Of a stretch of 51,919 nt of DNA, positions 23,266 through 51,697 are shown one piece after another. Under the pieces are notes generated by a model, which saw only the letters and a program-made list of their open reading frames with translations, ran no database searches and was not told where the DNA came from. The stretch spans positions 1 to 51,919 of the forward strand of contig DZBP01000003.1 in NCBI GenBank assembly GCA_022729915.1, in the 5' to 3' direction. Each line of letters opens with the position of its first letter. Position 1 is the stretch's first letter. The translations under genes were made by a program, and so were the position numbers. Origin of the DNA: Draconibacterium orientale. GTDB lineage: Bacteria > Bacteroidota > Bacteroidia > Bacteroidales > JAIFNL01.

Positions 23266-25362
23266 TTAAAAAGAATAAACAAATGCACCTTCGAGAGAAA
23301 CAAAATGCAAATCGATACCTAATTGACTAGCTTCTTCTTGCCATTTTTTTATTTTAGTAAAAGAATTTGATGAATCAATAATAATATTTTTTACATCATA
23401 AAATTCTAAGACTTCCGAAATCGTAATTTTTGCATTCTTTGAAAGCACTATAAAATCTAGCTTTAACTGTTTATTTGTATAAAAATCGGTTGAATTATTA
23501 TACCCTAAAATACCTATTTTCTTATTTTTGAACATTATAAAATTCTCATCAAAAAAACACGATTTGTAAGTATTTCTGAATTCATTTAGGTTTAAAATAC
23601 TTTTAATTTGTGGTTTGAGAAGATTGGCTTGTGTCCAAAAATTTTTAGCAGCAAAATTGATACTCAATTCATTTTTTTGAAGAGAAGTATCGCAAATAAC
23701 AATATTTTCGGTATTTGTTGCAAAATTAAGCATAGTGGATTTACTAATATTGAAAACAACAAATGTACTTTTTTGAGCTTTTTTATAATTCGAGTAAAAA
23801 TTTGAAGATGACAGAATAAACAAAAAAACAATTGTCAGTTTAAGCAAATATTTTCGTTTTGATACAAAAAATAAAAACGCAAAAAGTATGAAAAAGTAAA
23901 ATAAAAACATTTCTACTAAATTCAATTGCATGCCTTGAATAGTGCTAAATGGCAATTTTGTAATAAAATTGACACTATAATTGAGCAAATAAACCGAATA
24001 ATACAGAACTGAACCTAAAAGTTTACTTACCAATGCAATTTTTGCAGTAAGTAAAAGCACAATAGCCAAATAAGTTATAAAAAAAGATAAGGGAATAACT
24101 ACAATATTGGTAAAAATAAAATATACCGGAAATTGATTAAAATAAAATATGCTAATTGGTAGCGTACCAAGCTGTGCAGCAATTGAAACACTGACCAATT
24201 CCCAAATATAATTTCCAACTTTTGAAGGCACATATAAACTCTTGTAAATAGCTGGTTGAAAGGAAACTATTGAAAATACAGCTAAATAAGAAAGTTGAAA
24301 ACCAATATCGAGAAAATTGATAGGAGAATATAACATTAGCAATGAAGCTGAAGCCCACAAAGAATTGTAAATGCTGCCCGAACGATTAATATAATCGCCA
24401 ATTGCAACAAAAGTAAACATCAATGTTGCACGAAGCACTGAAGGCGAAAGTCCACTAATCAAAGCAAAAGCCCAAAGAGAAAATACAATAACAATTACTT
24501 TTATAAGTCTAATTTTTGCAGTTGAGCCGAACGGTCTGAATATCAGCATTAAAAATCCTAAAATAATACCAACATGCAAACCCGAAACTGATAAAATATG
24601 CATTGCACCCGAATCTGTAAATGCCTGTTTTGTTTCAATATCCAAGTAGTTTTTATAGCCTAAAGTAAGGGCAGAAAGTACAGCCAGCTCATCTCCTTCT
24701 ATGCCATTTCTTTTGTAAATTTCAAGTAAAGTATTTCTGAAATTATTTGCTGTATAAAAAATTGAAAAACCTTTAAATTTTTCGAGGAATTGAAATTTAT
24801 CAGGTTCTAAAAAAGCTTGATAAAAGATTCCTTTTTTTGCCAAATAATTTGGAAAATCAAATTCATTTGGATTTCCTTTAGGTTTAATCTCTTGAAATTT
24901 AGACGATAACACAATTTTATCGCCATATTGAAGCGCAGCTACTTTTGAATCTTTTCTAAAATAAACTAAAACTAAATAATTTTCTTTTTCTGAAGGATTA
25001 TTTATATTTTGCTCTACTTTTAGTGTGGTTTTATAAAAATTTTCGCTTTCTTGAAGATTATCGTCAATGATTGCAATATATTGATTTTCAGCGGAAATAT
25101 CGATTTTTGCTTGTTTTATTTCGCGTGCTTTCGAAAGAAAAACGCCACTAAAGAAAAAGAAAAAAAGTAAAACATAACCAAAGAAAAAGCTAAAAATATA
25201 TTTTTTTGAAAGTGATGAAAAATGAAAAAAAACTAATAGTAAAAGGGAAGAAATAAGCAAAAATAAGCTCAAAAAAGTTGAAATCTCAATATACAAATTG
25301 AAAATAATTCCCCAAATAAATGGTAAAGCTATTCGTACAAATGGTATTTTGTTAAAATTCAT
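23266..25362 (-). CDS. ComEC/Rec2 family competence protein (C-terminal beta-lactamase-like domain appears degenerate)
   Basis: 698 aa and polytopic. Competence-domain signature DSGAMHILSVSGLHVGI and LSPSVLRATLMF. No HxHxDH motif in the C-terminal ~190 aa. Confidence 0.85.
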   Translation of the reverse strand: MNFNKIPFVRIALPFIWGIIFNLYIEISTFLSLFLLISSLLLLVFFHFSSLSKKYIFSFFFGYVLLFFFFFSGVFLSKAREIKQAKIDISAENQYIAIIDDNLQESENFYKTTLKVEQNINNPSEKENYLVLVYFRKDSKVAALQYGDKIVLSSKFQEIKPKGNPNEFDFPNYLAKKGIFYQAFLEPDKFQFLEKFKGFSIFYTANNFRNTLLEIYKRNGIEGDELAVLSALTLGYKNYLDIETKQAFTDSGAMHILSVSGLHVGIILGFLMLIFRPFGSTAKIRLIKVIVIVFSLWAFALISGLSPSVLRATLMFTFVAIGDYINRSGSIYNSLWASASLLMLYSPINFLDIGFQLSYLAVFSIVSFQPAIYKSLYVPSKVGNYIWELVSVSIAAQLGTLPISIFYFNQFPVYFIFTNIVVIPLSFFITYLAIVLLLTAKIALVSKLLGSVLYYSVYLLNYSVNFITKLPFSTIQGMQLNLVEMFLFYFFILFAFLFFVSKRKYLLKLTIVFLFILSSSNFYSNYKKAQKSTFVVFNISKSTMLNFATNTENIVICDTSLQKNELSINFAAKNFWTQANLLKPQIKSILNLNEFRNTYKSCFFDENFIMFKNKKIGILGYNNSTDFYTNKQLKLDFIVLSKNAKITISEVLEFYDVKNIIIDSSNSFTKIKKWQEEASQLGIDLHFVSLEGAFVYSF

Positions 25363-25374
25363 ATCGCAAAAAAA

Positions 25375-28300
25375 CTATTTTTCTTGCCAACGCAATCGTA
25401 AATCTTCAAAATAATTGAGCACTCTACGAATAAAATCGAGCAATAAAGTATTGTAAGCTATAAAAATCATAAACCAAATGGCAGCTACATTAAACCACAA
25501 TGTATCAATTACTTTATTTCCAATCAATTTTACGGGCGAATAAAAATGAGCACGACCGATTTTTGAAGTTGGATACATAAAAATTGGATCCTTTTTCTGT
25601 ATTAATTCGTCATTAATTTCATAGATTTTAGTCAAATCGTAAGCATTTAATAAATAATCGGCTAAACGTTTGTTGTGATTATTTTGCTTCAATTTAAGCA
25701 AACCGTCAGTACTTAGTGTGTCAATCATTGTTTGGATAACACGGTCTTTTTCAGCATTAGCTTGCTCTGAAATTTTTGAGTATTGAAATTTCATGTACTG
25801 CAAATAATCTTTGGTTTCCTGCGCAATATCTTCATTAAATTGCTTAGAATTCAGCATTTTAAGTGAACCAAAAGGTATGTCGTTTCCAAATTCCCACAAC
25901 TTGCGGATTTCATTTTTTAATACCCTGAAATTTTTTTCTATTTTTTCGGTATTTGCCGAACCGCCTTTTAGTTTCAGATTTTCATCAAGACGCGATTCTA
26001 AATTTGGAATTAGATATGCATTCCTGAAAGATGCATCACTATGAGCTTTTTCGTATTTGTAGAAATATTTCTCGTATTTGTTGTTTTTAAATTCCTCTAC
26101 CGCTAAAGCCTCAAAAGCCCATCGTGATGCAACCATATCGCCTATCACAGGCACATGCACTCTATCTGTAAAATTAGGATTTAAATCATCAAACGAAACA
26201 ATTACACCACTGAGCAAAATTTGGGGAACTAAAATAAACGGAATCAGTATGTAAATGTTAACCACAGAGTTAAGCCCCGATGAGATATTTAAACCAACTA
26301 TATTAGCAAATGCGGAAGTAGAAAAAAGCACAAGCCAAAATTGCCACCACATTCCTTTGAGTACGAAAAAATAATTTCCAACTAAAACAAAGCTAAGTGT
26401 TTGAACAGCTGAGAGTAAAAAAAGGTACAAAATTTTTGAATTGATATAACTAAAACGGCTTAAATGCAAAAATTCTTCTCGTTTCAATATTTTCCTATCT
26501 CGTATAATCTCTTCAGCACTAACAATTAAGCCTAAAAATAAAGCTACAATAACGCTCATTAATAAATATGATGGAAAGTTTTTATTTTCACTAAAAGCGT
26601 AACCATCAGCATTATAAAATTTTGTAAGATATGATAATACAAAAGCAAGTAAAGGTGCTTCTAAAAAAGTGATAAGTAAATATTGCTTATTTGTGAATTT
26701 TGAAATCAAATTGCGTAAGCTAAAAATCCAAAACTGATTATCCAAATCAGGTATTTTAAAGTGATTTTTGGGTATTTTTGACTCAGCTTTTTTTATTTCA
26801 AGTTTTGCTTCAATATTTTCCTTGTATTTATTGTACCATTGTTCGGGAGAAATTTTTCGTTCGGGCAAATATTTTCCGTACTCATCTACCACACGAGCCT
26901 CAATAATATTTAGTATTTGCTCCGGATTTATGTTACCACAAGTAGGGCAAATATTTTCTTCGGGGTTTAAATGTTCGCTCATTCGTTTGAAGTACGAAAT
27001 AGCGTCAATTGGGTTACCATTGTAAATAATTCTACCTCCTTTGTCTAAAATCCAAAGTTTGTCAAAAAGCTTAAATATATCTGAAGAAGGCTGATGAATA
27101 TTTACAATTACCAATTTACCTTTTTGAACCTGTTCTTTCAACAAAAACATAACTGTTTCTGAATCAGAAGAAGACAAACCAGAAGTAGGTTCATCTACAA
27201 ATAAAATAGAGGGTTCGCGTATAAGTTCAAGTGCAATATTTAGCCGTTTGCGCTGACCTCCACTTATGTATTTTTTTAAAGGACTCCCAATGGTTAAATG
27301 TTTAATTTCAAATAAGCCCAAATCAATTAAAATTCTGTTTATCAGACCGATAATCTTTTTTTCGGGAAAATTTCCAAAGCACAATTTAGCACTGTAATAC
27401 AAATTTTCAAAAACGGTCAATTCTTCTATAAGTAAATCATCTTGAGGAACATATCCTATAATTCCTTCAATTTTTTTTGACTGAGTATGTATATTGAATC
27501 CATTAATAGTTAAAGTTCCATTTTTGGGTATAATGCTTCCATTGAGCAAATTGAACAAAGTGGACTTCCCTACTCCACTTCCGCCCATGATTCCTATTAA
27601 ATTACCTGATTCTTCTGAAAAACTAAAATTCTTAATACCATTTCGGCTTCCTTTAAAATTAAACTCTAAATTCTCGCCATTAAAAACTAATCTAGTACTA
27701 TTTTTTGATGACAAAAAAGAAGCTACAATGTCGCTAAAATAAATTGGAATAATATCACCACCTTTAATAATAGCACCTGGTTCCAAGAAAAAAATGCTTT
27801 CTGGCACAATACGTCGATTGTTCAATTCTAAACGCATGTGCCCTGAATATTTGAACGCAAAGCTCTTAATGCTAGCCACATAAAGAACCCAAATACTTCC
27901 AACTAATTTTGGACGATAAATTTTCCGATATTTTAGAAAACTTTCAGGTTCGTTTTTTGCAAACCAAGCACCGCCTTTTTCTTGCGAATCGTCTTCGTTA
28001 TTGATTAGTAAAATATTACTTTTATTCTTTATTTTTTGTATCTCGTTGGAATATAAATGCTTTAAATTACTAAATTCTTCGTCGGAAATATTAAAAGTTT
28101 GGCTTACAGTTTCTACAAAATCAATTTCTGATTCTGTTATATGGTCGTCTTCGTCGATAAATTCGAGTAATTTTATTAGCACATGAAATTTTTCTCTTCG
28201 ATTCAAACTTTTATTTACCTCGTTGCAGATTCGAAGAGTACGCACCGAACTTGAAGCTTTTACTGATACGTCGGAGGTAGGTGCAGAAGGAACAGTGCTA

Positions 28301-28479
28301 TGAAAATCAACAACATAACTCTCAAACAATTTAACATATTCCTGATATTTTGCATACGACAAAACAGGTTTAAGAACAGAATCGACTATGCTTCTGGCTT
28401 TTTTGGATACACCATTTTCATCAACATTTGAAATGATGGCAAATAGCTGAATTATAGCTTTTAATATCGATTCACTCAT
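25375..28479 (-). CDS. multidomain ABC transporter ATP-binding/permease protein (TerB-like N-domain, beta-rich domain, ABCG-like NBD, ABC-2 permease); paralogue of 45565..48789
   Basis: 1034 aa. Walker A GGSGVGKST, signature ISGGQRKRLNIA, Walker B ILFVDEPTSGL and IHQPSS (ABCG hallmark). CPTCGNINPE linker, ~6 TM helices, a ~230-aa hydrophilic region and a final TM. It aligns with the second copy along its whole length. Confidence 0.85.
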   Translation of the reverse strand: MSESILKAIIQLFAIISNVDENGVSKKARSIVDSVLKPVLSYAKYQEYVKLFESYVVDFHSTVPSAPTSDVSVKASSSVRTLRICNEVNKSLNRREKFHVLIKLLEFIDEDDHITESEIDFVETVSQTFNISDEEFSNLKHLYSNEIQKIKNKSNILLINNEDDSQEKGGAWFAKNEPESFLKYRKIYRPKLVGSIWVLYVASIKSFAFKYSGHMRLELNNRRIVPESIFFLEPGAIIKGGDIIPIYFSDIVASFLSSKNSTRLVFNGENLEFNFKGSRNGIKNFSFSEESGNLIGIMGGSGVGKSTLFNLLNGSIIPKNGTLTINGFNIHTQSKKIEGIIGYVPQDDLLIEELTVFENLYYSAKLCFGNFPEKKIIGLINRILIDLGLFEIKHLTIGSPLKKYISGGQRKRLNIALELIREPSILFVDEPTSGLSSSDSETVMFLLKEQVQKGKLVIVNIHQPSSDIFKLFDKLWILDKGGRIIYNGNPIDAISYFKRMSEHLNPEENICPTCGNINPEQILNIIEARVVDEYGKYLPERKISPEQWYNKYKENIEAKLEIKKAESKIPKNHFKIPDLDNQFWIFSLRNLISKFTNKQYLLITFLEAPLLAFVLSYLTKFYNADGYAFSENKNFPSYLLMSVIVALFLGLIVSAEEIIRDRKILKREEFLHLSRFSYINSKILYLFLLSAVQTLSFVLVGNYFFVLKGMWWQFWLVLFSTSAFANIVGLNISSGLNSVVNIYILIPFILVPQILLSGVIVSFDDLNPNFTDRVHVPVIGDMVASRWAFEALAVEEFKNNKYEKYFYKYEKAHSDASFRNAYLIPNLESRLDENLKLKGGSANTEKIEKNFRVLKNEIRKLWEFGNDIPFGSLKMLNSKQFNEDIAQETKDYLQYMKFQYSKISEQANAEKDRVIQTMIDTLSTDGLLKLKQNNHNKRLADYLLNAYDLTKIYEINDELIQKKDPIFMYPTSKIGRAHFYSPVKLIGNKVIDTLWFNVAAIWFMIFIAYNTLLLDFIRRVLNYFEDLRLRWQEK

Positions 28480-41689: not shown

Positions 41690-44320
41690 ATGGCAAAAAA
41701 ATATAAATACTATTCCGATATTAAGAGCTCATTTTGGGTGTCGAGCTATGTAAAACGCCAGACTTTACTTGGCTTTACATTAGGTTTAATATTTCCATTA
41801 ATATCGTGGACATTGGAAGTTTTAACTAAAAATTATGACTTATCACTAAAAAGTATCTTTCTATTTCATATTGAAAACCAACAAAATTTTTTAATTGACT
41901 TAATTCCGTTTGTAATAGCAGGTATCGTATATATGCTGTCAGTATCGTCGGAGAGAGTTAATAAAGAATTGAAATTTGAAGTAGAGGAATTAAATGGCAA
42001 GATTCAGAAAAATGCAAATTTTGCTAATTTAATAGGTAAAAAAGATTTTTCGCGAAAGTTTGACGAAATTGACGAAGACGATGAGTTAGGCAAAGCGCTC
42101 TTGCGAATGAAAAATAACCTTGAGCTTACCGAAAACAAAGAAAACGAGCAAAACTGGATTGCAAAAGGAAAAGAGCATATCTCTAATATATTGCGTTTGC
42201 ACAATAATATTGACACACTCGCATACGAAACTACTGTAAATCTGATAGATTACACAAAAGCGGTGCAGGGTGCATTTTATATATATGACGATGATACCGA
42301 CAGAATTATAAATATTGCAACTTATGCATACAATCGAAAAAAATACATAAGCCAAGAATTTAGAATAGGTCAAGGTCTTATAGGTCAGTGTGCCTATGAA
42401 ATGGATTTTATTTACAGAAAAGAAATACCTAAAAACTATGTAACTATTACTTCGGGTATTTTGGGAGATAAAAAACCACAAACTATATTAATTGTACCTT
42501 TAATTAGCAATGAAAAACTACAAGGTATCGTTGAATTTGCTTCGCTTGAGGAAGATATTCCAGAGTTAACAATTAAGTTTGTTAGGGAATTAGCTACTAT
42601 CATAGCTCAAACGGTTTTTAACTTAAAAGTAAATGCAAAAACCGAAAAGCTTTTGAAAGAAGCGAGAATAATGACCGAAGAATTAAAAGAAAACGAAGAA
42701 GAATTGAGGCAAAATGCAGAAGAAATGCGTGCAACTCAAGAAGAGCTTCAAAAAACAAATATTAATCTTGAAAAGCAAATAAAAGAAGTAGAAAACTCAC
42801 AAAAACGTTTGCATTCATTGTTAGAAAATGCTTCAGAAGTAATTTCTATTTATGATGAAAATGGGCTAGTAAAATACGAAAGTCCTTCGGTAAAAAACAT
42901 TTTGGGTTATGCACCCGAAGAAATTATTGGGAAAAGTGCTTTTGAAACAGTTCATACTTCTGAAAACAATATCACAAAACGTATATTCTTTGAGCTTTTG
43001 GAAAATCCGGAAGCTCCTCGAACATTTGAGTATCAATACACAAAAAACGACGAAGAAACTCTTTGGCTTGAATCAACTGGGCGTAACTTTTTGAACAACT
43101 CGGCTATTGCTGGTATTATTTTCAATACTCGCGATATTACGGTTCGGAAAATAGCTGAAAAAGCTCAGCGTATGAGCGGTCAAATGCAAGCACTTTCGGA
43201 AAATAGTATTGACATGATTATTCGTATTAATCTTGAAGGACGTTTTTTCTATGTGAACCCGCAAGTAGAAGAATATACTGGGGTGAAAAAATCCAATTTA
43301 ATAAGACGTACTTTAGAAGAAGTAGGCATAGAAGCAACAATATCGAGGGTTTTTAAAACAACAATTGAAAAAATAGCCTTTAAACCAGAAAAACTAGAAA
43401 CCGAATTTGAATTTGAATCAAATTTAGGACATAGGTTTATGCAACTTAACGCAATACCGGAATTTAGCGAAGATGGCGATTTAGAAACAGTATTGCTTGT
43501 TGCACATGATATTACGGAGCAAAAGAAAATAGAAGCCGAGATTATTGATAAAAATAAAAAAATAAACGACAGTATAAATTATGCGCAACGAATTCAAAAA
43601 GCAATATTGCCAGACAATAAGCTTATACATGAATATTTGCCAAATTCATTTATACTTTACAAACCAAGAGATGTAGTAAGTGGCGATTTTCCATGGTTCT
43701 TTAAAAAAGGCGATGATATTTATATAGCCGCAGTAGATTGTACTGGACATGGAGTACCGGGAGCGTTATTATCTTTTATTGGCTATTTCTTGCTCAACAA
43801 TATTGTAGATCACGACAGAGAATTTACAGCCGGAGAGGTTTTAGACAAATTGCACGAAGAAGTTCGCACAACATTGAAGCAAGACCAAGAGGGAGCAAAT
43901 GCACGAGATGGTATGGATATTGCGCTGTGTAAAATAAATAGAACACGCAATGAGCTACAATATTCAGGAGCGCATCGCCCACTGTATCTGTTAAGAGAAG
44001 GTGAATTAATTCAATATAGAGGAAGCCCCAAAGCAATAGGAGGTATTCCAAACAACAAAAAAGATGAAAAACCATTTATAAATCATGTTATAAAATATCA
44101 AAAATCGGATAAAATATTCTTTTTTTCAGATGGCTTGCCCGACCAAATAGGCGGCGACAAAGGAAGAAAATACCAAGTAGTAAGAATACGCGATGAGATA
44201 TTGAGCAATTTAGAATTTTCTATGCCACAGTATATGAAGCATTTTTCTAAAGATTTCAGGAAATGGCAAGGAAATTACAAACAAATTGACGATGTTTTAA
44301 TGATTGGAGTTGAATTTTAA
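41690..44320 (+). CDS. membrane-anchored GAF/PAS/PAS sensor fused to a PP2C (SpoIIE-family) protein phosphatase; SiaA-like
   Basis: 876 aa. Two N-terminal TM helices, a GAF-like region (~42150-42625; IGQGLIGQCA, ILIVPLISNEKLQGIVEF) and the coiled coil EELKENEEELRQNAEEMRATQEELQ. Two PAS-like modules lie at ~42800-43150 and ~43190-43525. PP2C motifs: SGDFPWF, AAVDCTGHGVPGALLS, FFFSDGLPDQ. Confidence 0.9.
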   Translation: MAKKYKYYSDIKSSFWVSSYVKRQTLLGFTLGLIFPLISWTLEVLTKNYDLSLKSIFLFHIENQQNFLIDLIPFVIAGIVYMLSVSSERVNKELKFEVEELNGKIQKNANFANLIGKKDFSRKFDEIDEDDELGKALLRMKNNLELTENKENEQNWIAKGKEHISNILRLHNNIDTLAYETTVNLIDYTKAVQGAFYIYDDDTDRIINIATYAYNRKKYISQEFRIGQGLIGQCAYEMDFIYRKEIPKNYVTITSGILGDKKPQTILIVPLISNEKLQGIVEFASLEEDIPELTIKFVRELATIIAQTVFNLKVNAKTEKLLKEARIMTEELKENEEELRQNAEEMRATQEELQKTNINLEKQIKEVENSQKRLHSLLENASEVISIYDENGLVKYESPSVKNILGYAPEEIIGKSAFETVHTSENNITKRIFFELLENPEAPRTFEYQYTKNDEETLWLESTGRNFLNNSAIAGIIFNTRDITVRKIAEKAQRMSGQMQALSENSIDMIIRINLEGRFFYVNPQVEEYTGVKKSNLIRRTLEEVGIEATISRVFKTTIEKIAFKPEKLETEFEFESNLGHRFMQLNAIPEFSEDGDLETVLLVAHDITEQKKIEAEIIDKNKKINDSINYAQRIQKAILPDNKLIHEYLPNSFILYKPRDVVSGDFPWFFKKGDDIYIAAVDCTGHGVPGALLSFIGYFLLNNIVDHDREFTAGEVLDKLHEEVRTTLKQDQEGANARDGMDIALCKINRTRNELQYSGAHRPLYLLREGELIQYRGSPKAIGGIPNNKKDEKPFINHVIKYQKSDKIFFFSDGLPDQIGGDKGRKYQVVRIRDEILSNLEFSMPQYMKHFSKDFRKWQGNYKQIDDVLMIGVEF

Positions 44321-44446: not shown

Positions 44447-45022
44447 ATGGCAGAGATTGTTAATAGGCACAACTTCCTTGATTTTGTATATGATTTTTAT
44501 CTAAAGATGAAATCGAAGGACGTAAATTTAGTTTACGAAGGGGAAATAACTCATCAAATAACTAAAGCATTTACGTCGCTTACAGAGTCAAAAATGCTTC
44601 GAGAGGAAGAACCCAACACTGTACAAAAAAAGGTTTTCCATGTAATGGTAGAATGCTTGCAAAATATAAGCAAACATGCCAGCCAACCAGAAACTGCCAC
44701 CGATGAAAAAGAAGGCAAAGGCATTTTCATGATTAGTAAAGGAGAATCGGAATATTTGGTAACAACAGGCAATACAATTCCTACGGAGAAAATTGATGGA
44801 TTGCGTTATATGCTTGAAAATATCAACAATTTAGACAAAGAAGGTTTGAAAAAACTTTACAAGCAGCAAATACGGGAAGGCAGACTTTCCGAAAAAGGCG
44901 GTGCTGGTCTAGGTTTTATAGATATTGCAAAGAAAACAGGACGCCCATTAGAGTATCATTTCCTTACAGTAGACAAAGATGAATCATTTTTTGTATTAAC
45001 ATCAAGTATTTCACGAAAATAA
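44447..45022 (+). CDS. SiaB-like protein kinase (GHKL / anti-sigma-factor-kinase fold)
   Basis: 191 aa. N-box-like MVECLQNISKHA and the G-box GGAGLGFIDIAKKTG. The size and the position between a PP2C gene and a DUF1987 gene match SiaB. Confidence 0.75.
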   Translation: MAEIVNRHNFLDFVYDFYLKMKSKDVNLVYEGEITHQITKAFTSLTESKMLREEEPNTVQKKVFHVMVECLQNISKHASQPETATDEKEGKGIFMISKGESEYLVTTGNTIPTEKIDGLRYMLENINNLDKEGLKKLYKQQIREGRLSEKGGAGLGFIDIAKKTGRPLEYHFLTVDKDESFFVLTSSISRK

Positions 45023-45037
45023 AAAACAAACATAATT

Positions 45038-45421
45038 ATGCAAGTAATAAAAATAAAAGGCTCAGACGATACGCCCACTATAATACTAGATGCTGAAAAT
45101 AATATAATGGAAATATCTGGAAGGTCTTTGCCTGAAGATGTGGCTTCATTCTACGAACCTGTTTTAGAATGGCTTGATGAATATGCCCAGAGTCCGAATG
45201 AAAAGACAATACTGGATTTTAAACTTGTGTATTTTAATACTGCTTCATCAAAATTGTTGCTCGATATACTACTTAAACTCGAAGACTTATCTGACGAAGG
45301 TAATGAGGTATTGGTAAGATGGCATTATCCTGATGACGACGAAGATATGGAAGAAGCAGGTGAAGAATACGCAGACATTGTAGATGTTCCGTTTGAACAA
45401 ATCAGCTATAGTTTAGATTAG
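45038..45421 (+). CDS. DUF1987 (SiaC-like) regulatory phosphoprotein
   Basis: 127 aa. DDTPTIILDAENNIMEISGRSLPEDVASFYEPVLEWL and YFNTASSKLLLDILLKL match the DUF1987 consensus as I recall it. Thr68 sits in FNT68ASSK (codon 45239-45241). Acidic tail DDDEDMEEAGEE. Starts 15 nt after the kinase gene. Confidence 0.8.
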   Translation: MQVIKIKGSDDTPTIILDAENNIMEISGRSLPEDVASFYEPVLEWLDEYAQSPNEKTILDFKLVYFNTASSKLLLDILLKLEDLSDEGNEVLVRWHYPDDDEDMEEAGEEYADIVDVPFEQISYSLD

Positions 45422-45564
45422 ATTGTTGTTGTTGTTTTGAAAAACAATAATTGAAAGATACATTATTTAAAATAGACTATAAGCCACTGCTTAATTAATA
45501 GTGATTATCAACAATTCAGGCATCAGCCAGTTTTAAATTAACTCCTTTATCTGAAACATAAAAA

Positions 45565-48500
45565 ATGAGTGAAGAGATACTAAAAGCCTTGATGCAATTA
45601 TTTGCTATAATTGTAAAACAAGATGAAGGAGTTGAACAAAATGAAATTAAGTATGTCAAGACATTCTTAACCCAGCAATTAGGGGACGAGGCTGTTTCGG
45701 AATACTTATACCTGTTTTACGAAAAAGCTGGCTTAGATACTGAGGGTAAACTATTAGAAACAGAATCGGAAGAAGATAGAAAACCTAAGCGTACTTCGGT
45801 AAAAGACTCGGTGCGTATTTTGGGTTTGTGCAAAAAAATAAATAAAAATCTTAACCAAAAACAAAAAGTTGTCGTATTAACTCGCTTATTTGAGTTAATC
45901 AATACCGAACGGAAATTTTCGGAACAACGCATGGCTATTATCAACACAGTAGCCGAAGTATTTAATATTACAAAAGAAGAATTTATAAGTATCGAAACTT
46001 TTGTAATTGAAAACGAAGCAAGCAAGGTAGATTTTACAAATATTTTAATAGTAAGTCAAGAAAACATTGAAAGTGAGCACTGTAAAAAAGTTCATACAGA
46101 ATCTCTCAACGGAAATATTTTCATTTTGCATATAAAAGCAGTTGAACTATTTTTCCTAAAATACACTGGAACCGAAGCTGTAAACTTAAATGGACAAATA
46201 ATAAATAACAAAAGCATTTACTTATTTGCCAACGGTAGTACTATTAGAATACCAAAAGGTAAACCTATTTATTATAGCGACATAGTTGCAAAGTTTTTGT
46301 CCGATTCCATTATTGCAAAACTTTCATTCTCTGTAGAAAATATTTCGTTCCAATTTCCTAATGGAGACTTGGGTTTAAGAAGTATTTCTTTTTCTGAAAC
46401 GCATGGAAAACTCATTGGAATAATGGGTGCAAGCGGCGCAGGAAAAACTACAATGCTCAACTCTTTGTCTGGCATTTCTACCCCAACATCGGGAAGAGTT
46501 TTGATAAACGGGATAGATCTTCACCACAACAAAGAAGAAATTGAAGGCTTAATAGGTTACATTCCTCAAGATGACCTTTTGATTGAAGAGCTTACTGTTT
46601 TTGAAAATTTGTACTTCAATGCCAAGCAATGCTTCAACAAAAAGCCAGAAGCCGAAATAATTCAACTTGTAAATACGGTTTTGAAAAATTTAGGTCTTTT
46701 TGAAAGAAAAGATTTAAAAGTAGGTTCGCCACTGAATAAATTAATAAGCGGTGGGCAGCGTAAACGCTTAAATATTGCACTTGAGCTTATAAGAGAACCC
46801 GCCATTTTGTTTGTAGATGAACCCACATCGGGTTTGTCGTCGCGCGATTCGGAGAATGTTATGGACTTACTTAGGGAGCTAACCCTCAAAGGTAAGTTGA
46901 TTTTTGTGGTTATCCACCAGCCTTCTTCTGAAATTTATAAGATGTTCGACAAGATGATGATTCTTGATACGGGCGGCTATATGGTTTACTACGGAAATCC
47001 GGTAGAAGCCATTTTGTACTTCAAAGAAATTGATAACCAAATAAATAACGTATCGGGCGAGTGCCCTGTTTGTGGTAACGTAAATCCTGAGTCTATTTTT
47101 GATATCGTAGAAGCTAAGGTAGTAGATGAGTTTGGTAATTACACTGATAACCGCAAAGTTAGCCCAAAACACTGGGAAGACCATTTCCATGAAAAAATAA
47201 AACTAGAACCCGTAGAAATTATTAAAGACAAGCCGGTAAGTACCTTGGATATTCCAACGTGGTTTAAGCAGCTCAAAATATATTTGAAACGTGATTGGTT
47301 GTCGAAAATAAGCAACAAACAGTACATTGCTATCAATTTGATAGAATCGCCACTGCTTGGATTTATCCTTTCGTACATTATTCGGTACATTGCCGACCCC
47401 AATTCGGTGGTTTATGTGTTTAGAGAAAACGTAAATATACCTCCGTATATTTTTATGAGTGTGGTAGTTGCACTTTTTATAGGATTAACAGTAAGTGCAG
47501 AAGAAATTTTTAAGGATAGAAAAATATTGAAACGAGAAGCGTTTCTAAATTTAAGTCGTTCGAGTTATTTAATCTCGAAGGTGATTATACTTTTTGGGCT
47601 TTCGGCAATACAATCGTTGTTGTTTGTGTTGGTAGGAAATACAATACTTGGCATAGAGGAAATGTATTTTGAATACTGGTTGATTTTGTTTTCTATTTCG
47701 GCAGGAGCCAATATGATGGGCTTGAACATTTCATCAACATTTAACTCAGCTATAACGATTTATATTTTAATTCCGCTGTTGATAATTCCTCAATTAGCTT
47801 TGGGTGGAGCTATGTTTAGTTTTGAAAAACTGAACAAAACCATTAGCAGCATCGAAAAGGTGCCTATTGTAGCAGAAGTAATGACTGCGCGCTGGGGTTA
47901 TGAAGCTTTGATGGTGAAACAATACAAAGACAATAAATTTGAAACACTTTTTTATGATATTGAGAAAAAAATAAGTATAGCCGATTTTAAATTGGCACAT
48001 TATATCCCTTATTTAGAGACAATCTTAGACGAAGTAATTCGAGATTTGGATTCAACAAACGATTCGACACGCCAAGTAGTGAGTAGAAAACTCAACTTGC
48101 TACAAAAAGAATTTACGCGCGAAGCAAAAAAGATAAATACCCTTGAGCTGCAATATATAGAGAAGAAAAGCGACCGTGTGGAATTGAAATTCAAATACAT
48201 AGACAAACTAACAATGGAAAATGTTTCGGATACCGTTTTGGAAGAAGCACGTACCTACATAAAAAAAGAATTGGATTCGTATTATAATTTCTTCTACAAA
48301 GAAGGCTCTGAGAAAAAAGAAAGAATAATAGACTATTTGAAAGAAAACAAACCAGGATATTATGATAGCAGAAGAAAAAAATATCACAACGAATCGCTTC
48401 AAGAAATAGTAAAAAAGATTTATGAGAAAAATCCGATTATAGAATACGATGGAAAACTAATCCAACAAATAGATCCTATTTACTTAGACCCTGAACCAAA

Positions 48501-48789
48501 CCATTTGTTTGATTTCAGAACCCAATTTTTTGCTCCAAGAAAACATTTTATTGGAAAATATTACGATACTTTCTGGTTCAATACAATACTCATTTGGATA
48601 ATAACGTTAGTATTCTATGTTACTCTTTACTTTAACTTATTGAAAAAAACCTTAGATAAAATAGAAGGAATTAAAATACAAGAGAAACTAAAAAAATATA
48701 ATTTCTTAAAGAAAATAAAAATACGAAGGTTGAAAACGGAGAAAACAAAAAAAGTAAAGCCAGAAATTAAGAAATTAGATTTAGATTAA
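45565..48789 (+). CDS. multidomain ABC transporter ATP-binding/permease protein (TerB-like N-domain, beta-rich domain, ABCG-like NBD, ABC-2 permease, helical domain, terminal TM, Lys-rich tail)
   Basis: 1074 aa. TerB-like LMQLFAIIVKQDEGVEQNEIKYVKTFL and VLTRLFELINTERKFSEQRMAIINTVAEVF. Walker A GASGAGKTT, ISGGQRKRLNIA, ILFVDEPTSGL, IHQPSS and CPVCGNVNPE (47062-47091). ~6 TM helices, then a ~230-aa hydrophilic domain, a last TM (FWFNTILIWIITLVFYVTLYF) and a KKxK-rich tail. Confidence 0.85.
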   Translation: MSEEILKALMQLFAIIVKQDEGVEQNEIKYVKTFLTQQLGDEAVSEYLYLFYEKAGLDTEGKLLETESEEDRKPKRTSVKDSVRILGLCKKINKNLNQKQKVVVLTRLFELINTERKFSEQRMAIINTVAEVFNITKEEFISIETFVIENEASKVDFTNILIVSQENIESEHCKKVHTESLNGNIFILHIKAVELFFLKYTGTEAVNLNGQIINNKSIYLFANGSTIRIPKGKPIYYSDIVAKFLSDSIIAKLSFSVENISFQFPNGDLGLRSISFSETHGKLIGIMGASGAGKTTMLNSLSGISTPTSGRVLINGIDLHHNKEEIEGLIGYIPQDDLLIEELTVFENLYFNAKQCFNKKPEAEIIQLVNTVLKNLGLFERKDLKVGSPLNKLISGGQRKRLNIALELIREPAILFVDEPTSGLSSRDSENVMDLLRELTLKGKLIFVVIHQPSSEIYKMFDKMMILDTGGYMVYYGNPVEAILYFKEIDNQINNVSGECPVCGNVNPESIFDIVEAKVVDEFGNYTDNRKVSPKHWEDHFHEKIKLEPVEIIKDKPVSTLDIPTWFKQLKIYLKRDWLSKISNKQYIAINLIESPLLGFILSYIIRYIADPNSVVYVFRENVNIPPYIFMSVVVALFIGLTVSAEEIFKDRKILKREAFLNLSRSSYLISKVIILFGLSAIQSLLFVLVGNTILGIEEMYFEYWLILFSISAGANMMGLNISSTFNSAITIYILIPLLIIPQLALGGAMFSFEKLNKTISSIEKVPIVAEVMTARWGYEALMVKQYKDNKFETLFYDIEKKISIADFKLAHYIPYLETILDEVIRDLDSTNDSTRQVVSRKLNLLQKEFTREAKKINTLELQYIEKKSDRVELKFKYIDKLTMENVSDTVLEEARTYIKKELDSYYNFFYKEGSEKKERIIDYLKENKPGYYDSRRKKYHNESLQEIVKKIYEKNPIIEYDGKLIQQIDPIYLDPEPNHLFDFRTQFFAPRKHFIGKYYDTFWFNTILIWIITLVFYVTLYFNLLKKTLDKIEGIKIQEKLKKYNFLKKIKIRRLKTEKTKKVKPEIKKLDLD

Positions 48790-48995: not shown

Positions 48996-49928
48996 ATGAT
49001 TAAAGATTTATTTAAAGTGCCAATATATGTTGTACTGATAGTATCAACAATATTATTTGTTTTCGTAGCTTCATGTACTGACCCCGAAGACAAAGCTGTG
49101 AAAGAAGATTTAGAAAATATGAGCAACGAAGACGGTTCTGTTATAGACTCAGAAGGTAATATGGGAGAAATAATAGGAAACTTATCGTCGCCAGTAGAAA
49201 TGGCTGCCTTAATAAAAGATAATGGCGTGCCTTTCTCGTTAAAATATTTATCCAATCCGGATAATATAGACCAATACAGCACAAAATTTGATCAAGCCTT
49301 GGGCTTGGGTATTTTGGGTGCTGACTTAGGCTATTTGAATATTTACGACCGAACAACTTATGTACTAAGGTATATTTCAGCCATCAGTAAATTATCGGAA
49401 GAACTGAGTGTAAGTCAGTTTTTTGACTTTGAAACACTCAAACGTTTGGCAACAAATAATGAAAACTTAGACTCTCTGATTTACATTTCGACCTCGAGTT
49501 TTAACCGTATGGATACCTACTTGAGAGAAATGAATAGAGCAGACCAAAGTATATTGATAGTAACGGGAGTTTGGTTAGAAGCAATGTATCAAACCACTCA
49601 AGTAGTGAAACAAAAACCCAATGAAAAATTAACTGAAAGAATAGGCGAACAAAAACTAATTCTTTCGGAAATAATCAATACAATAAAAAGATACCAATCG
49701 AAGAAGGCATTTAAAGAATTACTTGATGATTTGACGGAAATAAATTCAATATACGAAAAAGTTAAAATCGAATATCAAGTAGGTGAACCTGAAACAGTTG
49801 AAATTGACGGAAGATTGATAATACAACAAAATGAAACAAGTATTGTAAACATCACTCAAGATCAACTAAACCAGATAATCTCAATTATCGAAAGAATAAG
49901 AAATAAAAGAATACAATTAAATAATTAG
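48996..49928 (+). CDS. hypothetical lipoprotein (helical, unknown function)
   Basis: 310 aa. N-terminal hydrophobic segment with lipobox FVASC. No recognisable motif. The antisense 149-aa ORF 48833..49282 is judged spurious. Confidence 0.55.
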   Translation: MIKDLFKVPIYVVLIVSTILFVFVASCTDPEDKAVKEDLENMSNEDGSVIDSEGNMGEIIGNLSSPVEMAALIKDNGVPFSLKYLSNPDNIDQYSTKFDQALGLGILGADLGYLNIYDRTTYVLRYISAISKLSEELSVSQFFDFETLKRLATNNENLDSLIYISTSSFNRMDTYLREMNRADQSILIVTGVWLEAMYQTTQVVKQKPNEKLTERIGEQKLILSEIINTIKRYQSKKAFKELLDDLTEINSIYEKVKIEYQVGEPETVEIDGRLIIQQNETSIVNITQDQLNQIISIIERIRNKRIQLNN

Positions 49929-49934
49929 GAAAAT

Positions 49935-50378
49935 ATGAAGAAATTACTCATTCCTTTTATCTTTTTGCTAGTATTGACAACGTTTAGCATAGATTCAAAA
50001 GCACAATGTAACGACCAGCTTGTAAACGATTGCGCGTTGAATGTGGGCGACAATGCTACCTATATCAAAGATTTTAAAGCAAAGCTAAAAGGCGCTCGCA
50101 AGGGAAGTGCACCTATTGCTACCTTTTCTATTGTTCTAAACAAAGGAACACACTATCGGTTTACCGTTTGTAATGCTTTGGAATATGAAGGCGAAGCTGT
50201 TCTTCAACTCTATGATGCAAACAACACTATGATAGGTAGTACTTTTGACTTAGCAAAAGGAAAAGATTACAAAGCTTTTGACTTTATGGCAAGAAAAACG
50301 GCAACGTATAAGGTGTATATCTCGTTCAAAGGGGGCTTAGAGGGTTGCGCTGTAGGTATTGTGTCGATGGTGCGTTAA
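49935..50378 (+). CDS. hypothetical small secreted protein (beta-rich, 5 Cys)
   Basis: 147 aa with signal peptide MKKLLIPFIFLLVLTTFSIDSKA. It starts 6 nt after the previous stop. No known motif. Confidence 0.55.
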   Translation: MKKLLIPFIFLLVLTTFSIDSKAQCNDQLVNDCALNVGDNATYIKDFKAKLKGARKGSAPIATFSIVLNKGTHYRFTVCNALEYEGEAVLQLYDANNTMIGSTFDLAKGKDYKAFDFMARKTATYKVYISFKGGLEGCAVGIVSMVR

Positions 50379-50401: not shown

Positions 50402-51697
50402 ATGATAAGAAAAGGTCTATTAATACTATTTGCTTTAATTACCGGGTTTAGCTCTATTTGGGCTAGCGATTATGGCGATACCATTCGGTATAAAAACAAT
50501 GTGGTTAAAGAGATTTGTCATTTCTCGCACGGGCTTGTTGTGGGCGAACGTAAACAGTTTGACAAAAAAGGGGAATTAATAGAAACTCATCATTTCAAAG
50601 GAAACATAGGTGAGATTAGGTCTTATTATAATGATAGTTTAGTAGCTTCGGTTATTAGCAAAGTTACGCAGTCGATAGTAGATGGTAATTATACTTTGAC
50701 TATTGATGCAGGTACAGAAATTTATGGTTTTTATAAGGGTACCCGAAATAAAAAATACAGTATTACGGTAGACAAAACTTTTTCTATTGATTATAAGGAG
50801 TCATACGAACATTACAATATCTTTTTTGACGATGTCATTTTGCTCTATAAGCGTAGAGATATGAAGGGGCTGGAAGGCAGCATGATTACTTACTATGCAA
50901 CCGATGGGGTTAAAATTATTTCGACCTTGAAAATTGGCGGCGGAGATAATGGTAATTACTATCAGCTTATAAACCCTGAAAACAAAACGGTTTTGGCGCA
51001 CGGATACATTAAAAAAATTAGAAGTAGCGATTATTATGTAGGTAAATGGGAGTTTAACTACAGCGATGGTATTTTGGAGAAAATAGAGCATTTTTATGAT
51101 GGTGAAAATTCGGTTAAACATATTAAATACGGTACTCGAATAGATACTGCTATTTATTATTACCAAGTGAGCGGTAAAGTGAAAGCCATTGTGGTGTATC
51201 CGAGACCTGAAGATTTTAACCACCGAACGGATACTCTTATTACTTACTACATTGACCAGCAGGTGAGAACCCGATACGATGAAAAGAAAAAGGCTTCGAT
51301 TTTAAAAACCGGACTTAGACAAGATGAACTTTTTGAGTACTCTGGCTTGTATGAGGAATTTTGGGCAAACGGCGAACTGAAAATGAGAGGCTTTTTGTGT
51401 AAACCTCCAAGAGAACAAATTAATACCGAAGATATTCTAAACGAACATTTAAAATGCGTGGATCAACCAACTCAAAATTCGGTGCTTTTTCAGAACGAAA
51501 AATTGGTGAAGCAAATAAGTATGTGGTATTACTTTAGTGAAAAAGGTGATTTGATAGATATGAAGGAATATAGACTTTGCGGGCAGCTTAGAGAAAAGAA
51601 TCAGCCTAGTAAAAAGGATATAGAGAAGGAAAATACGAAATACAAATTGCAAAAAAAGAGTTATGAATTTCAATATTTGATTAAAGATAATGAATAA
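50402..51697 (+). CDS. secreted protein with MORN-variant (YwqK-like) repeats
   Basis: The ATG at 50402 gives MIRKGLLILFALITGFSSIWA, a signal peptide. Repeated G-x-W/Y-x-x-Y/F-x-x-G segments (GERKQFDKKGELIETHHFKGN, VGKWEFNYSDGILEKIEHFYDG, GLYEEFWANGELKMRGF) resemble MORN_2/YwqK repeats. Confidence 0.5.
   Translation: MIRKGLLILFALITGFSSIWASDYGDTIRYKNNVVKEICHFSHGLVVGERKQFDKKGELIETHHFKGNIGEIRSYYNDSLVASVISKVTQSIVDGNYTLTIDAGTEIYGFYKGTRNKKYSITVDKTFSIDYKESYEHYNIFFDDVILLYKRRDMKGLEGSMITYYATDGVKIISTLKIGGGDNGNYYQLINPENKTVLAHGYIKKIRSSDYYVGKWEFNYSDGILEKIEHFYDGENSVKHIKYGTRIDTAIYYYQVSGKVKAIVVYPRPEDFNHRTDTLITYYIDQQVRTRYDEKKKASILKTGLRQDELFEYSGLYEEFWANGELKMRGFLCKPPREQINTEDILNEHLKCVDQPTQNSVLFQNEKLVKQISMWYYFSEKGDLIDMKEYRLCGQLREKNQPSKKDIEKENTKYKLQKKSYEFQYLIKDNE

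Follow-up and report, generated by a model that had tools for sequence, protein, structure and literature searches.

Partner switches of the RsbV/SpoIIAA and SiaC types control sigma factors and cyclic di-GMP enzymes. In the SiaABCD system of Pseudomonas aeruginosa (PA0172-PA0169), the genes of a PP2C phosphatase, the kinase SiaB and the phosphoprotein SiaC are followed by the gene of a GGDEF diguanylate cyclase, SiaD. The helical stalk of SiaD is bound by SiaC in its unphosphorylated form via N67/T68/S69, which stabilises the active dimer; phosphorylation of T68 by SiaB abolishes this binding (PMC8457831). It was suggested in the same work that DUF1987 proteins, the family of SiaC, modulate adjacent proteins generally (PMC8457831). 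FHA-ABCG exporters such as Rv1747 of Mycobacterium tuberculosis are another described type (PMC3138270, PMC5549992). Their regulatory domain or domains lie directly N-terminal to the ATPase of an ABC-2/ABCG-type half-transporter, and the Rv1747 gene stands beside a Ser/Thr phosphorylation system (PMC3138270). We analysed a stretch of 51,919 nucleotides (nt) from the genome of Draconibacterium orientale (assembly GCA_022729915.1, contig DZBP01000003.1; below, the window). The open reading frame at 45565-48789 (+) encodes an ABCG-type ABC (ATP-binding cassette) transporter of 1074 amino acids (aa). It carries a TerB-like and an FHA-like domain before its ATPase, and its gene is the conserved downstream neighbour of a SiaABC-type triad. 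Comparison of the sequences indicates that this architecture is derived from the FHA-ABCG exporters, with a TerB-like domain and a periplasmic loop insertion added, and is combined with a SiaABC triad minus SiaD. The genomic case for the pairing is strong, and a biochemical mechanism can be predicted for it. By analogy with SiaD, SiaC may gate the transporter directly, and we put the probability of this reading at roughly 0.55.

The triad resembles that of P. aeruginosa in the order of the three genes. The first (41690-44320, +) encodes an 876-aa SiaA-like sensor phosphatase with the order GAF-PAS-PAS-PP2C/SpoIIE (Pfam GAF_2, PAS, PAS_4 and SpoIIE). Its match to the NCBIfam SiaA model extends across the PP2C part with E = 7e-49 and lies under the equivalog cut-off; the cytoplasmic GAF-PAS-PAS sensors also distinguish it from SiaA of P. 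aeruginosa. The second gene (44447-45022, +) encodes a 191-aa SiaB-family protein kinase (NF038262, 177.8 bits at a cut-off of 85; Pfam DUF6272). The third (45038-45421, +) encodes a 127-aa SiaC-family phosphoprotein (DUF1987; PF09345, 140.7 bits) with the phospho-acceptor T68 in YFNTASSK, so that T68 and the YFNTxSS motif are kept as in P. aeruginosa. T68 is also kept in about 98% of 93 transporter-linked SiaC proteins. Thus, a PP2C phosphatase, a SiaB kinase and a SiaC protein with a phospho-acceptor threonine are encoded together, as in SiaABCD. The output gene also lies directly 3' of siaC in both systems. However, no GGDEF domain was found among the cluster genes scanned, and the gene 3' of siaC encodes the ABC transporter and not SiaD. 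Unlike SiaD, the transporter has no coiled-coil stalk, and envelope proteins follow in the cluster.

The original prediction, made from the letters of the window alone, stated that the transporter begins 143 nt past the DUF1987 gene on the same strand, and the coordinates agree. It also called the protein giant; the length of 1074 aa is right, but about 1020-1160 aa is the ordinary size in this large family. The N-terminus MSEEILKALMQLF is near-invariant among relatives, and therefore the start codon is right. In the spacer between siaC and the transporter (45422-45564, +), a terminator scan revealed no terminator-like hairpin, in line with the original prediction, and significant RNA structure was not found (z = -0.35). 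The Bacteroidota -7 motif TAnnTTTG was not found in the spacer either; this is weak, since the motif is barely enriched window-wide (110 found against 94 expected). Such motifs precede the genes of SiaA (41455), SiaB (44333) and the envelope protein d310 (48877). A sigma-70 promoter scan gave no more sites than shuffled sequence, and its consensus is wrong for Bacteroidota. The last ~45 nt before the ATG (45520-45564) are identical in both congeners (G001 and G002), and the rest of the spacer has diverged. This stretch may be a conserved leader or a translation-initiation element.

To determine how the transporter and the switch are linked, the coordinates of their matches were compared in 41 genomes of the same order, and the 20-kb neighbourhoods were then annotated. 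It turned out that the order SiaA>SiaB>SiaC>transporter>d310>d147, where d310 and d147 are envelope proteins, is present in 17/17 assessable orthologous loci from 17 other genomes of the order. A second set consisted of 80 loci of named species from Bacteroidales and Cytophagales, with an assessable number that differs per gene. In 59/77 of these loci the next gene upstream on the same strand is that of SiaC, and the whole triad is upstream in 48/66. The carriers include Saccharicrinis, Marinilabiliaceae bacterium JC017, Flexithrix dorotheae, Marivirga, Chryseolinea and Ohtaekwangia, and the SiaC-transporter gap across other species has a median of ~48 nt. In addition, all 21 SiaC-bearing genomes among the 41 also have the transporter family. 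These counts decisively remove the concern, raised with the original prediction, that DUF1987 triads and this ABC family might share no synteny in other genomes, and the transporter is a conserved genomic partner of the triad.

A maximum-likelihood tree of 122 transporters contains four clades. Clade A has 93 members including the window gene, and 75 of them have a SiaC gene as their immediate upstream neighbour on the same strand. Clade B has 18 members, and 11 of these are arranged as d310-like>transporter> <SiaC<SiaB, with the transporter and the switch genes as a convergent pair. Clades C and D have no adjacent SiaC. The linkage label is clustered on the tree, and none of 500 shuffles reaches as few changes. 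In the tree of SiaC proteins, the convergent-linked SiaCs group with 96/98 support; the deeper order of this tree is unresolved, as the protein is short and the paralogue branches are long.

The linkage also bears on whether the neighbourhood arose by chance, or is an anti-phage or Ter-type stress module unrelated to the switch. TerB domains occur within tellurite-resistance and stress loci, and PADLOC gave the matches mads_3, mads_8 and AbiLi on the transporter. However, the PADLOC matches cover the generic ABC ATPase only, and no neighbour fits any defence model. We therefore rejected the defence-system reading. Synteny in two orders rules out chance, and the clustering of linkage on the tree argues in the same direction. 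A recent mobile island is argued against by the species-like tree and by identities of 48-93%. Taken as one explanation, chance adjacency or a stress module is highly improbable.

The N-terminal head of the transporter is the part in which regulation may be expected. An AlphaFold2 (AF2) model of residues 1-270 was built with 52 homologues and has a mean predicted local distance difference test (pLDDT) score of 85.9 and a predicted TM-score (pTM) of 0.80. Residues 1-148 (45565-46008, +) form a helical domain that is TerB-like and two-lobed; its loop at ~56-78 is disordered. In the model, eight helices extend up to residue 148 (3-148, pLDDT ~85-95). The Pfam TerB match at residues 8-143 is marginal (25.7 bits against a cut-off of 24.4); PF05099 is precomputed on most homologues. 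With Foldseek, the helical part matches the TerB-like structures 2h5n (TMt 0.52-0.56) and 2ou3 (prob 0.84) in the PDB. Thus, a family score above the gathering threshold and a TerB-like fold coincide, and the two-lobed helical N-domain of the TerB pattern proposed earlier holds at the level of the fold. D20, G22 and E110 are invariant in the alignment of 52 homologues. Like the TerB/DjlA-N-like domains (PF05099; 2ou3, 2h5n), the domain is a two-lobed helical repeat with the D-G...E pattern. Unlike them, it is fused to a transporter, its second lobe lacks the D-G pair, and no ter operon surrounds it. The motif L-T-S-V-K-D-S-V (residues 76-82; 45790-45810), just after the disordered loop, is near-invariant in clade A and is a possible modification or contact site.

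Residues 150-252 (46012-46320, +) form a compact, degenerate FHA-like beta domain with a linking helix. In the AF2 head model, the beta domain occupies residues 160-228 (pLDDT ~90) and is followed by a helix at 237-245. When the PDB was searched with this model by Foldseek, FHA domains of more than 10 different proteins made up most of the top 50 matches (prob up to 1.0, TMt 0.45-0.59, E 0.018-0.5); no match, whether FHA or TerB-like, had E <0.01. The FHA domain of CEP170 (4jon) is matched with prob 1.00, TMt 0.49 and a root-mean-square deviation of 2.7 Å over 81 columns, and that of Mek1 (5yyx, 5yyz) with TMt 0.45-0.59. Further matches are the FHA domains of Rad53 (FHA1), kanadaptin, KIF1A, Bdellovibrio DgcB and 6hc1. 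Using hhalign with 17 canonical FHA domains of related genomes, we found that residues 192-231 fit the distal FHA half (P = 2.5e-4, probability 43%). The signal arises only from fold and profile-profile methods. Pfam FHA (PF00498) has no match on the transporter even at E = 10, and a profile search of PDB sequences for FHA gave only the Mek1 FHA domain at E = 0.57.

The congeners help to place this domain. In G001, G002 and G007, separate transporters carry two or three canonical FHA domains, with an ABCG-type ATPase immediately behind them. In G001 (C36:14220-15833) and G002 (C133), a 962-976-aa transporter with three canonical FHA domains lies in a ~10-kb cluster with more FHA-domain genes; this three-FHA transporter was not found in the present genome, which is 83% complete. 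The FHA-like domain occupies the same place as the canonical FHA domains in these proteins. The BLASTP alignment with the canonical FHA-ABCG transporter of G002 is unbroken from residue 199 through the ATPase, with 37% identity and E = 2e-51, and so runs from the ATPase into the distal FHA half. Since the fold matches, the profile-profile match, the congener transporters and the continuity of the BLASTP alignment agree, the beta domain is very probably a diverged, degenerate FHA domain. The original prediction had described a ~90-aa beta-rich segment of this kind, and the modelled fold bears it out.

It was also predicted that a phospho-Thr-carrying SiaC docks on this FHA-like domain, as in the Rv1747-type systems: SiaB would phosphorylate T68, and the FHA-like domain would bind pT68-SiaC. 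The domain indeed has a predicted FHA-like fold in the place of a canonical FHA domain, and a phospho-Thr protein with a conserved T68 is encoded next to it. However, the phosphothreonine-binding residues (GR, SxxH, StNGT) are missing. The original prediction had itself not seen the canonical GR and SxxH residues; in 52 and 41 homologues, no conserved Arg, Ser or His matching them is present in positions 150-200. The invariant positions within 150-255 are L188, Y200, G202, L208, N209, G224, P234, Y236 and D239. Only N209 is ambiguous. The BLASTP register aligns this near-invariant residue with the Asn of StNGT, whereas the hhalign register and the predicted strands place it on the structural 'vNG', with the StN Asn in a gap. 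Moreover, in the characterised system it is phosphorylation of T68 that abolishes target binding (PMC8457831). As the binding residues are missing, we consider phospho-dependent docking quite unlikely, and the predicted form of the circuit is not supported. The likeness to Rv1747 is limited in other respects as well. The window's transporter has a single degenerate FHA-like domain preceded by a TerB-like domain, and it has a large periplasmic loop insertion. The adjacent kinase belongs to the SiaB family and is an RsbW/SiaB-type enzyme that acts on a separate small protein; the Hanks-type kinase of the Rv1747 system acts on the transporter's own linker.

The head is followed by an ABCG half-transporter. 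The ABC ATPase at residues 253-490 (46321-47034, +) is matched by Pfam ABC_tran at 271-422 (E = 1.6e-30). It has the Walker A motif GASGAGKT, the signature ISGGQRKR, ILFVDEPTSG with Walker B and the catalytic Glu, and the H-loop VIHQPSS. These motifs are invariant in 52 homologues. The transporter matches TIGR00955 with E = 1e-76, under the equivalog-level cut-off. The linker between the nucleotide-binding domain (NBD) and the transmembrane domain (TMD) covers residues 491-565 (47035-47259, +). It contains C500-x-x-C503-G-N-x-x-P-E (47062-47073), which is invariant in the same homologues and yet lies in a low-confidence loop (pLDDT low at 493-506). Residues 566-790 (47260-47934, +) comprise the connecting helix, the transmembrane helices (TM) 1-5 and the re-entrant helices, and Pfam ABC2_membrane matches at 569-762. 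In the full-length AF2 model (pLDDT 78, pTM 0.61), these are the connecting helix at 566-583, TM1 at 585-610, TM2 at 625-660, TM3 at 665-695, TM4 at 701-725, TM5 at 729-746 and the re-entrant helices at 768-788. With Foldseek, the model matches ABCG5/G8, ABCG2, ABCG1 and plant ABCG16/25 at E ~1e-23 (TMt 0.70-0.78, 545-577 columns), nearly over the whole length of the targets. Thus, the NBD-then-TMD order with intact motifs and the predicted ABCG membrane fold both place the protein among the ABCG/ABC-2 (type V fold) half-transporters. Pfam, the motifs and Foldseek agree with the predicted ABCG-type NBD (IHQPSS) followed by an ABC-2 permease.

The last part of the protein had been described as an extra ~230-aa hydrophilic domain anchored by a seventh TM. 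The model does not support this topology. Ahead of residues 791-1001 it shows just five membrane helices and the re-entrant helices, and therefore the final helix at 1002-1020 (hydropathy peak 1008-1026) is the canonical TM6. The boundary of the Pfam ABC2_membrane match was left out of this evidence, because this model ends ahead of TM6 in ABCG2 too. The hydrophilic region (residues 791-1001; 47935-48567, +) would then be a ~210-aa helical insertion in the last extracytoplasmic loop, facing the periplasm. It contains three long helices of ~35 residues each (793-827, 833-864 and 889-928) and a small beta sheet (958-1001). This variable insertion is the least conserved region, with 25-34% identity, and has no family match. 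TM6, the tail and the stop codon occupy residues 1002-1074 (48568-48789, +). The predicted Lys-rich tail is present, probably in the cytoplasm; it lacks conservation and is modelled with low pLDDT. Charge alternates between the loops in the expected way, with a K/R-rich loop at 650-665 and a K-rich tail. Like eukaryotic ABCG5/G8, ABCG2 and ABCG1, the transporter has the reverse NBD-then-TMD order, the same fold, the VIHQPS H-loop and its largest extracytoplasmic loop between the re-entrant TM5 region and TM6. Unlike them, it is bacterial, carries a 250-aa cytoplasmic head, has long helices in the ~210-aa last loop and shares 20-25% identity with them.

We then considered which product of the cluster could be the target of the switch. 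The genes downstream of the transporter encode d310, d147 and d450, which carry a lipobox or signal peptides and for this reason cannot meet the cytoplasmic SiaC. The transporter is the only product outside the triad with cytoplasmic domains, and it holds the position of SiaD. Thus, the SiaC switch most likely controls the transporter. In the proposed mechanism, the SiaA-like phosphatase and the SiaB-like kinase would set the phosphorylation state of T68. One state of SiaC would bind the cytoplasmic part of the ABCG-type half-transporter, which presumably works as a dimeric exporter, and so change the dimerisation or the ATPase activity of this transporter. If SiaD is taken as the model, SiaC would most likely bind in its unphosphorylated state, and its target would most likely be the helical head. 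Since a half-transporter must dimerise to work, an economical model is that SiaC stabilises or blocks a dimer of the head. The ABCG fold and the envelope partners make a lipid or another envelope component a plausible substrate. The narrower statement, that SiaC in one of its phosphorylation states binds the dimeric transporter at the TerB/pseudo-FHA head and controls the transporter's assembly or ATPase activity, has in our estimate an even chance of being right. In its boldest version, the degenerate FHA domain may have been re-tooled for reading SiaC.

Several observations weigh against direct gating by SiaC. The 143-nt gap is longer than usual, and a non-canonical promoter in it is possible. 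Three genomes (G007, G019 and G022) have the transporter family, and a SiaC gene was not found there. Transporters of clades C and D carry the head just as well, and SiaC is not adjacent there. Judging by this persistence in SiaC-unlinked clades and in genomes where SiaC was not found, docking of SiaC was not the sole driver of the head's evolution. No single domain has diverged in particular in the subclade that lost the triad, and so this subclade does not point to a docking site. The per-domain identities in this subclade, in the genomes where SiaC was not found and in the unlinked clades scale with overall divergence, and only three trivial positions of the head differ; the head is therefore not favoured over the NBD or the tail. 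Finally, relative genomes carry 2-21 SiaC paralogues, and cross-talk between them is possible. The occurrence of the head where SiaC is not adjacent or was not found would fit co-regulation only, in which the genes share an operon and an inducing condition, SiaC acts on an unlinked target and the head is a sensor for a ligand of its own. A role in ligand or metal binding is generally assumed for TerB-type domains. The present genome (83% complete, 3.5 Mb) has 12-13 SiaC-family, 8 SiaB-like and 27 PP2C-type phosphatase genes, and with so many paralogues the wiring may not follow adjacency. On the other hand, the two clade-specific arrangements both keep SiaB-SiaC beside the family transporter, the place 3' of siaC is that of siaD in Pseudomonas, and no other conserved cytoplasmic candidate is present in the cluster. 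We therefore regard co-regulation without contact as rather unlikely and retain direct gating by SiaC as the preferred reading.

Among the downstream genes, d310 (48996-49928, +) encodes a conserved lipoprotein partner with the lipobox FVASC and the invariant Cys27. It is downstream of the transporter in 59/78 named-species loci, and a d310-like gene is upstream in clade B. No credible Pfam or PDB family match of d310 was found; its single match at E <0.01 covers a coiled-coil stretch and was taken as chance. The next gene, d147 (49935-50378, +), encodes a small secreted Cys-containing protein with a signal peptide and is conserved 3' of d310. The third, d450 (50402-51697, +), encodes a secreted repeat protein with a signal peptide and a probable start Met at 50402. 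It was found only in the congeners G001 and G002 and in G038 of the same order, and it does not belong to the wider cluster.

The transporter belongs to a large family. A search of 5.8 billion proteins gave at least 8000 matches, and the best 120 of them are 1017-1188 aa long with 59-69% identity. They come from Bacteroidales, Marinilabiliales and similar metagenome-assembled genomes and carry no annotation beyond ABC protein. When the head by itself was searched exhaustively, at least 652 clusters at 50% identity were obtained. All full-length matches of the head are 980-1160 aa long and carry it at residue 1 of a transporter, and shorter ones look like contig-end fragments. Thus, the TerB/FHA-like head appears to be specific to this transporter family. 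Carrier genomes have about 1-6 full-length copies, and this genome has four. A second full-length TerB/FHA-like/ABCG paralogue of 1034 aa lies in the window at 25375-28479 (-), with 42-44% identity and a TerB score of 19.8, under the cut-off. It is 12 nt upstream of a ComEC-like gene (Competence and DUF4131; both at 23266-28479, -) and belongs to a clade without SiaC linkage. A clade-A transporter 55% identical to that of the window was found on CALPOI020000156.1, a 5.9-kb contig binned as 'Candidatus Planktophila lacus' (Actinomycetota), which is probably a mis-binned Bacteroidota contig. Partner-switch components have undergone a large expansion in this genome, with further examples at C171:7720-8690, C276:24381-27711 and C280. 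SiaC-family domains also occur inside longer frames of 504-790 aa (G000:C208:6020-6370 (-), G001:C29, G039:C128, G016:C210 and G038:C103), which by their sequences are SiaC fusions with other partners. A natural fusion of SiaC with the transporter was not seen.

In the literature searched, DUF1987 is discussed in one paper only, and no paper connects TerB, FHA and ABC transporters in Bacteroidota or describes this TerB/FHA-like/ABCG architecture with a switch. The family itself appears to show how the canonical FHA-ABCG architecture loses phosphopeptide binding while the fold stays. The cultured carriers Flexithrix dorotheae DSM 6795, Saccharicrinis sp. and Marinilabiliaceae bacterium JC017 make the hypothesis testable. 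If it is true, the locus would be the second worked example of a DUF1987 protein that regulates an adjacent gene, and a function would be given to a large uncharacterised family of Bacteroidota. It would also be the first partner switch with membrane transport as its output, widespread in environmental Bacteroidota, and the signalling logic of partner switches would be extended to transport.

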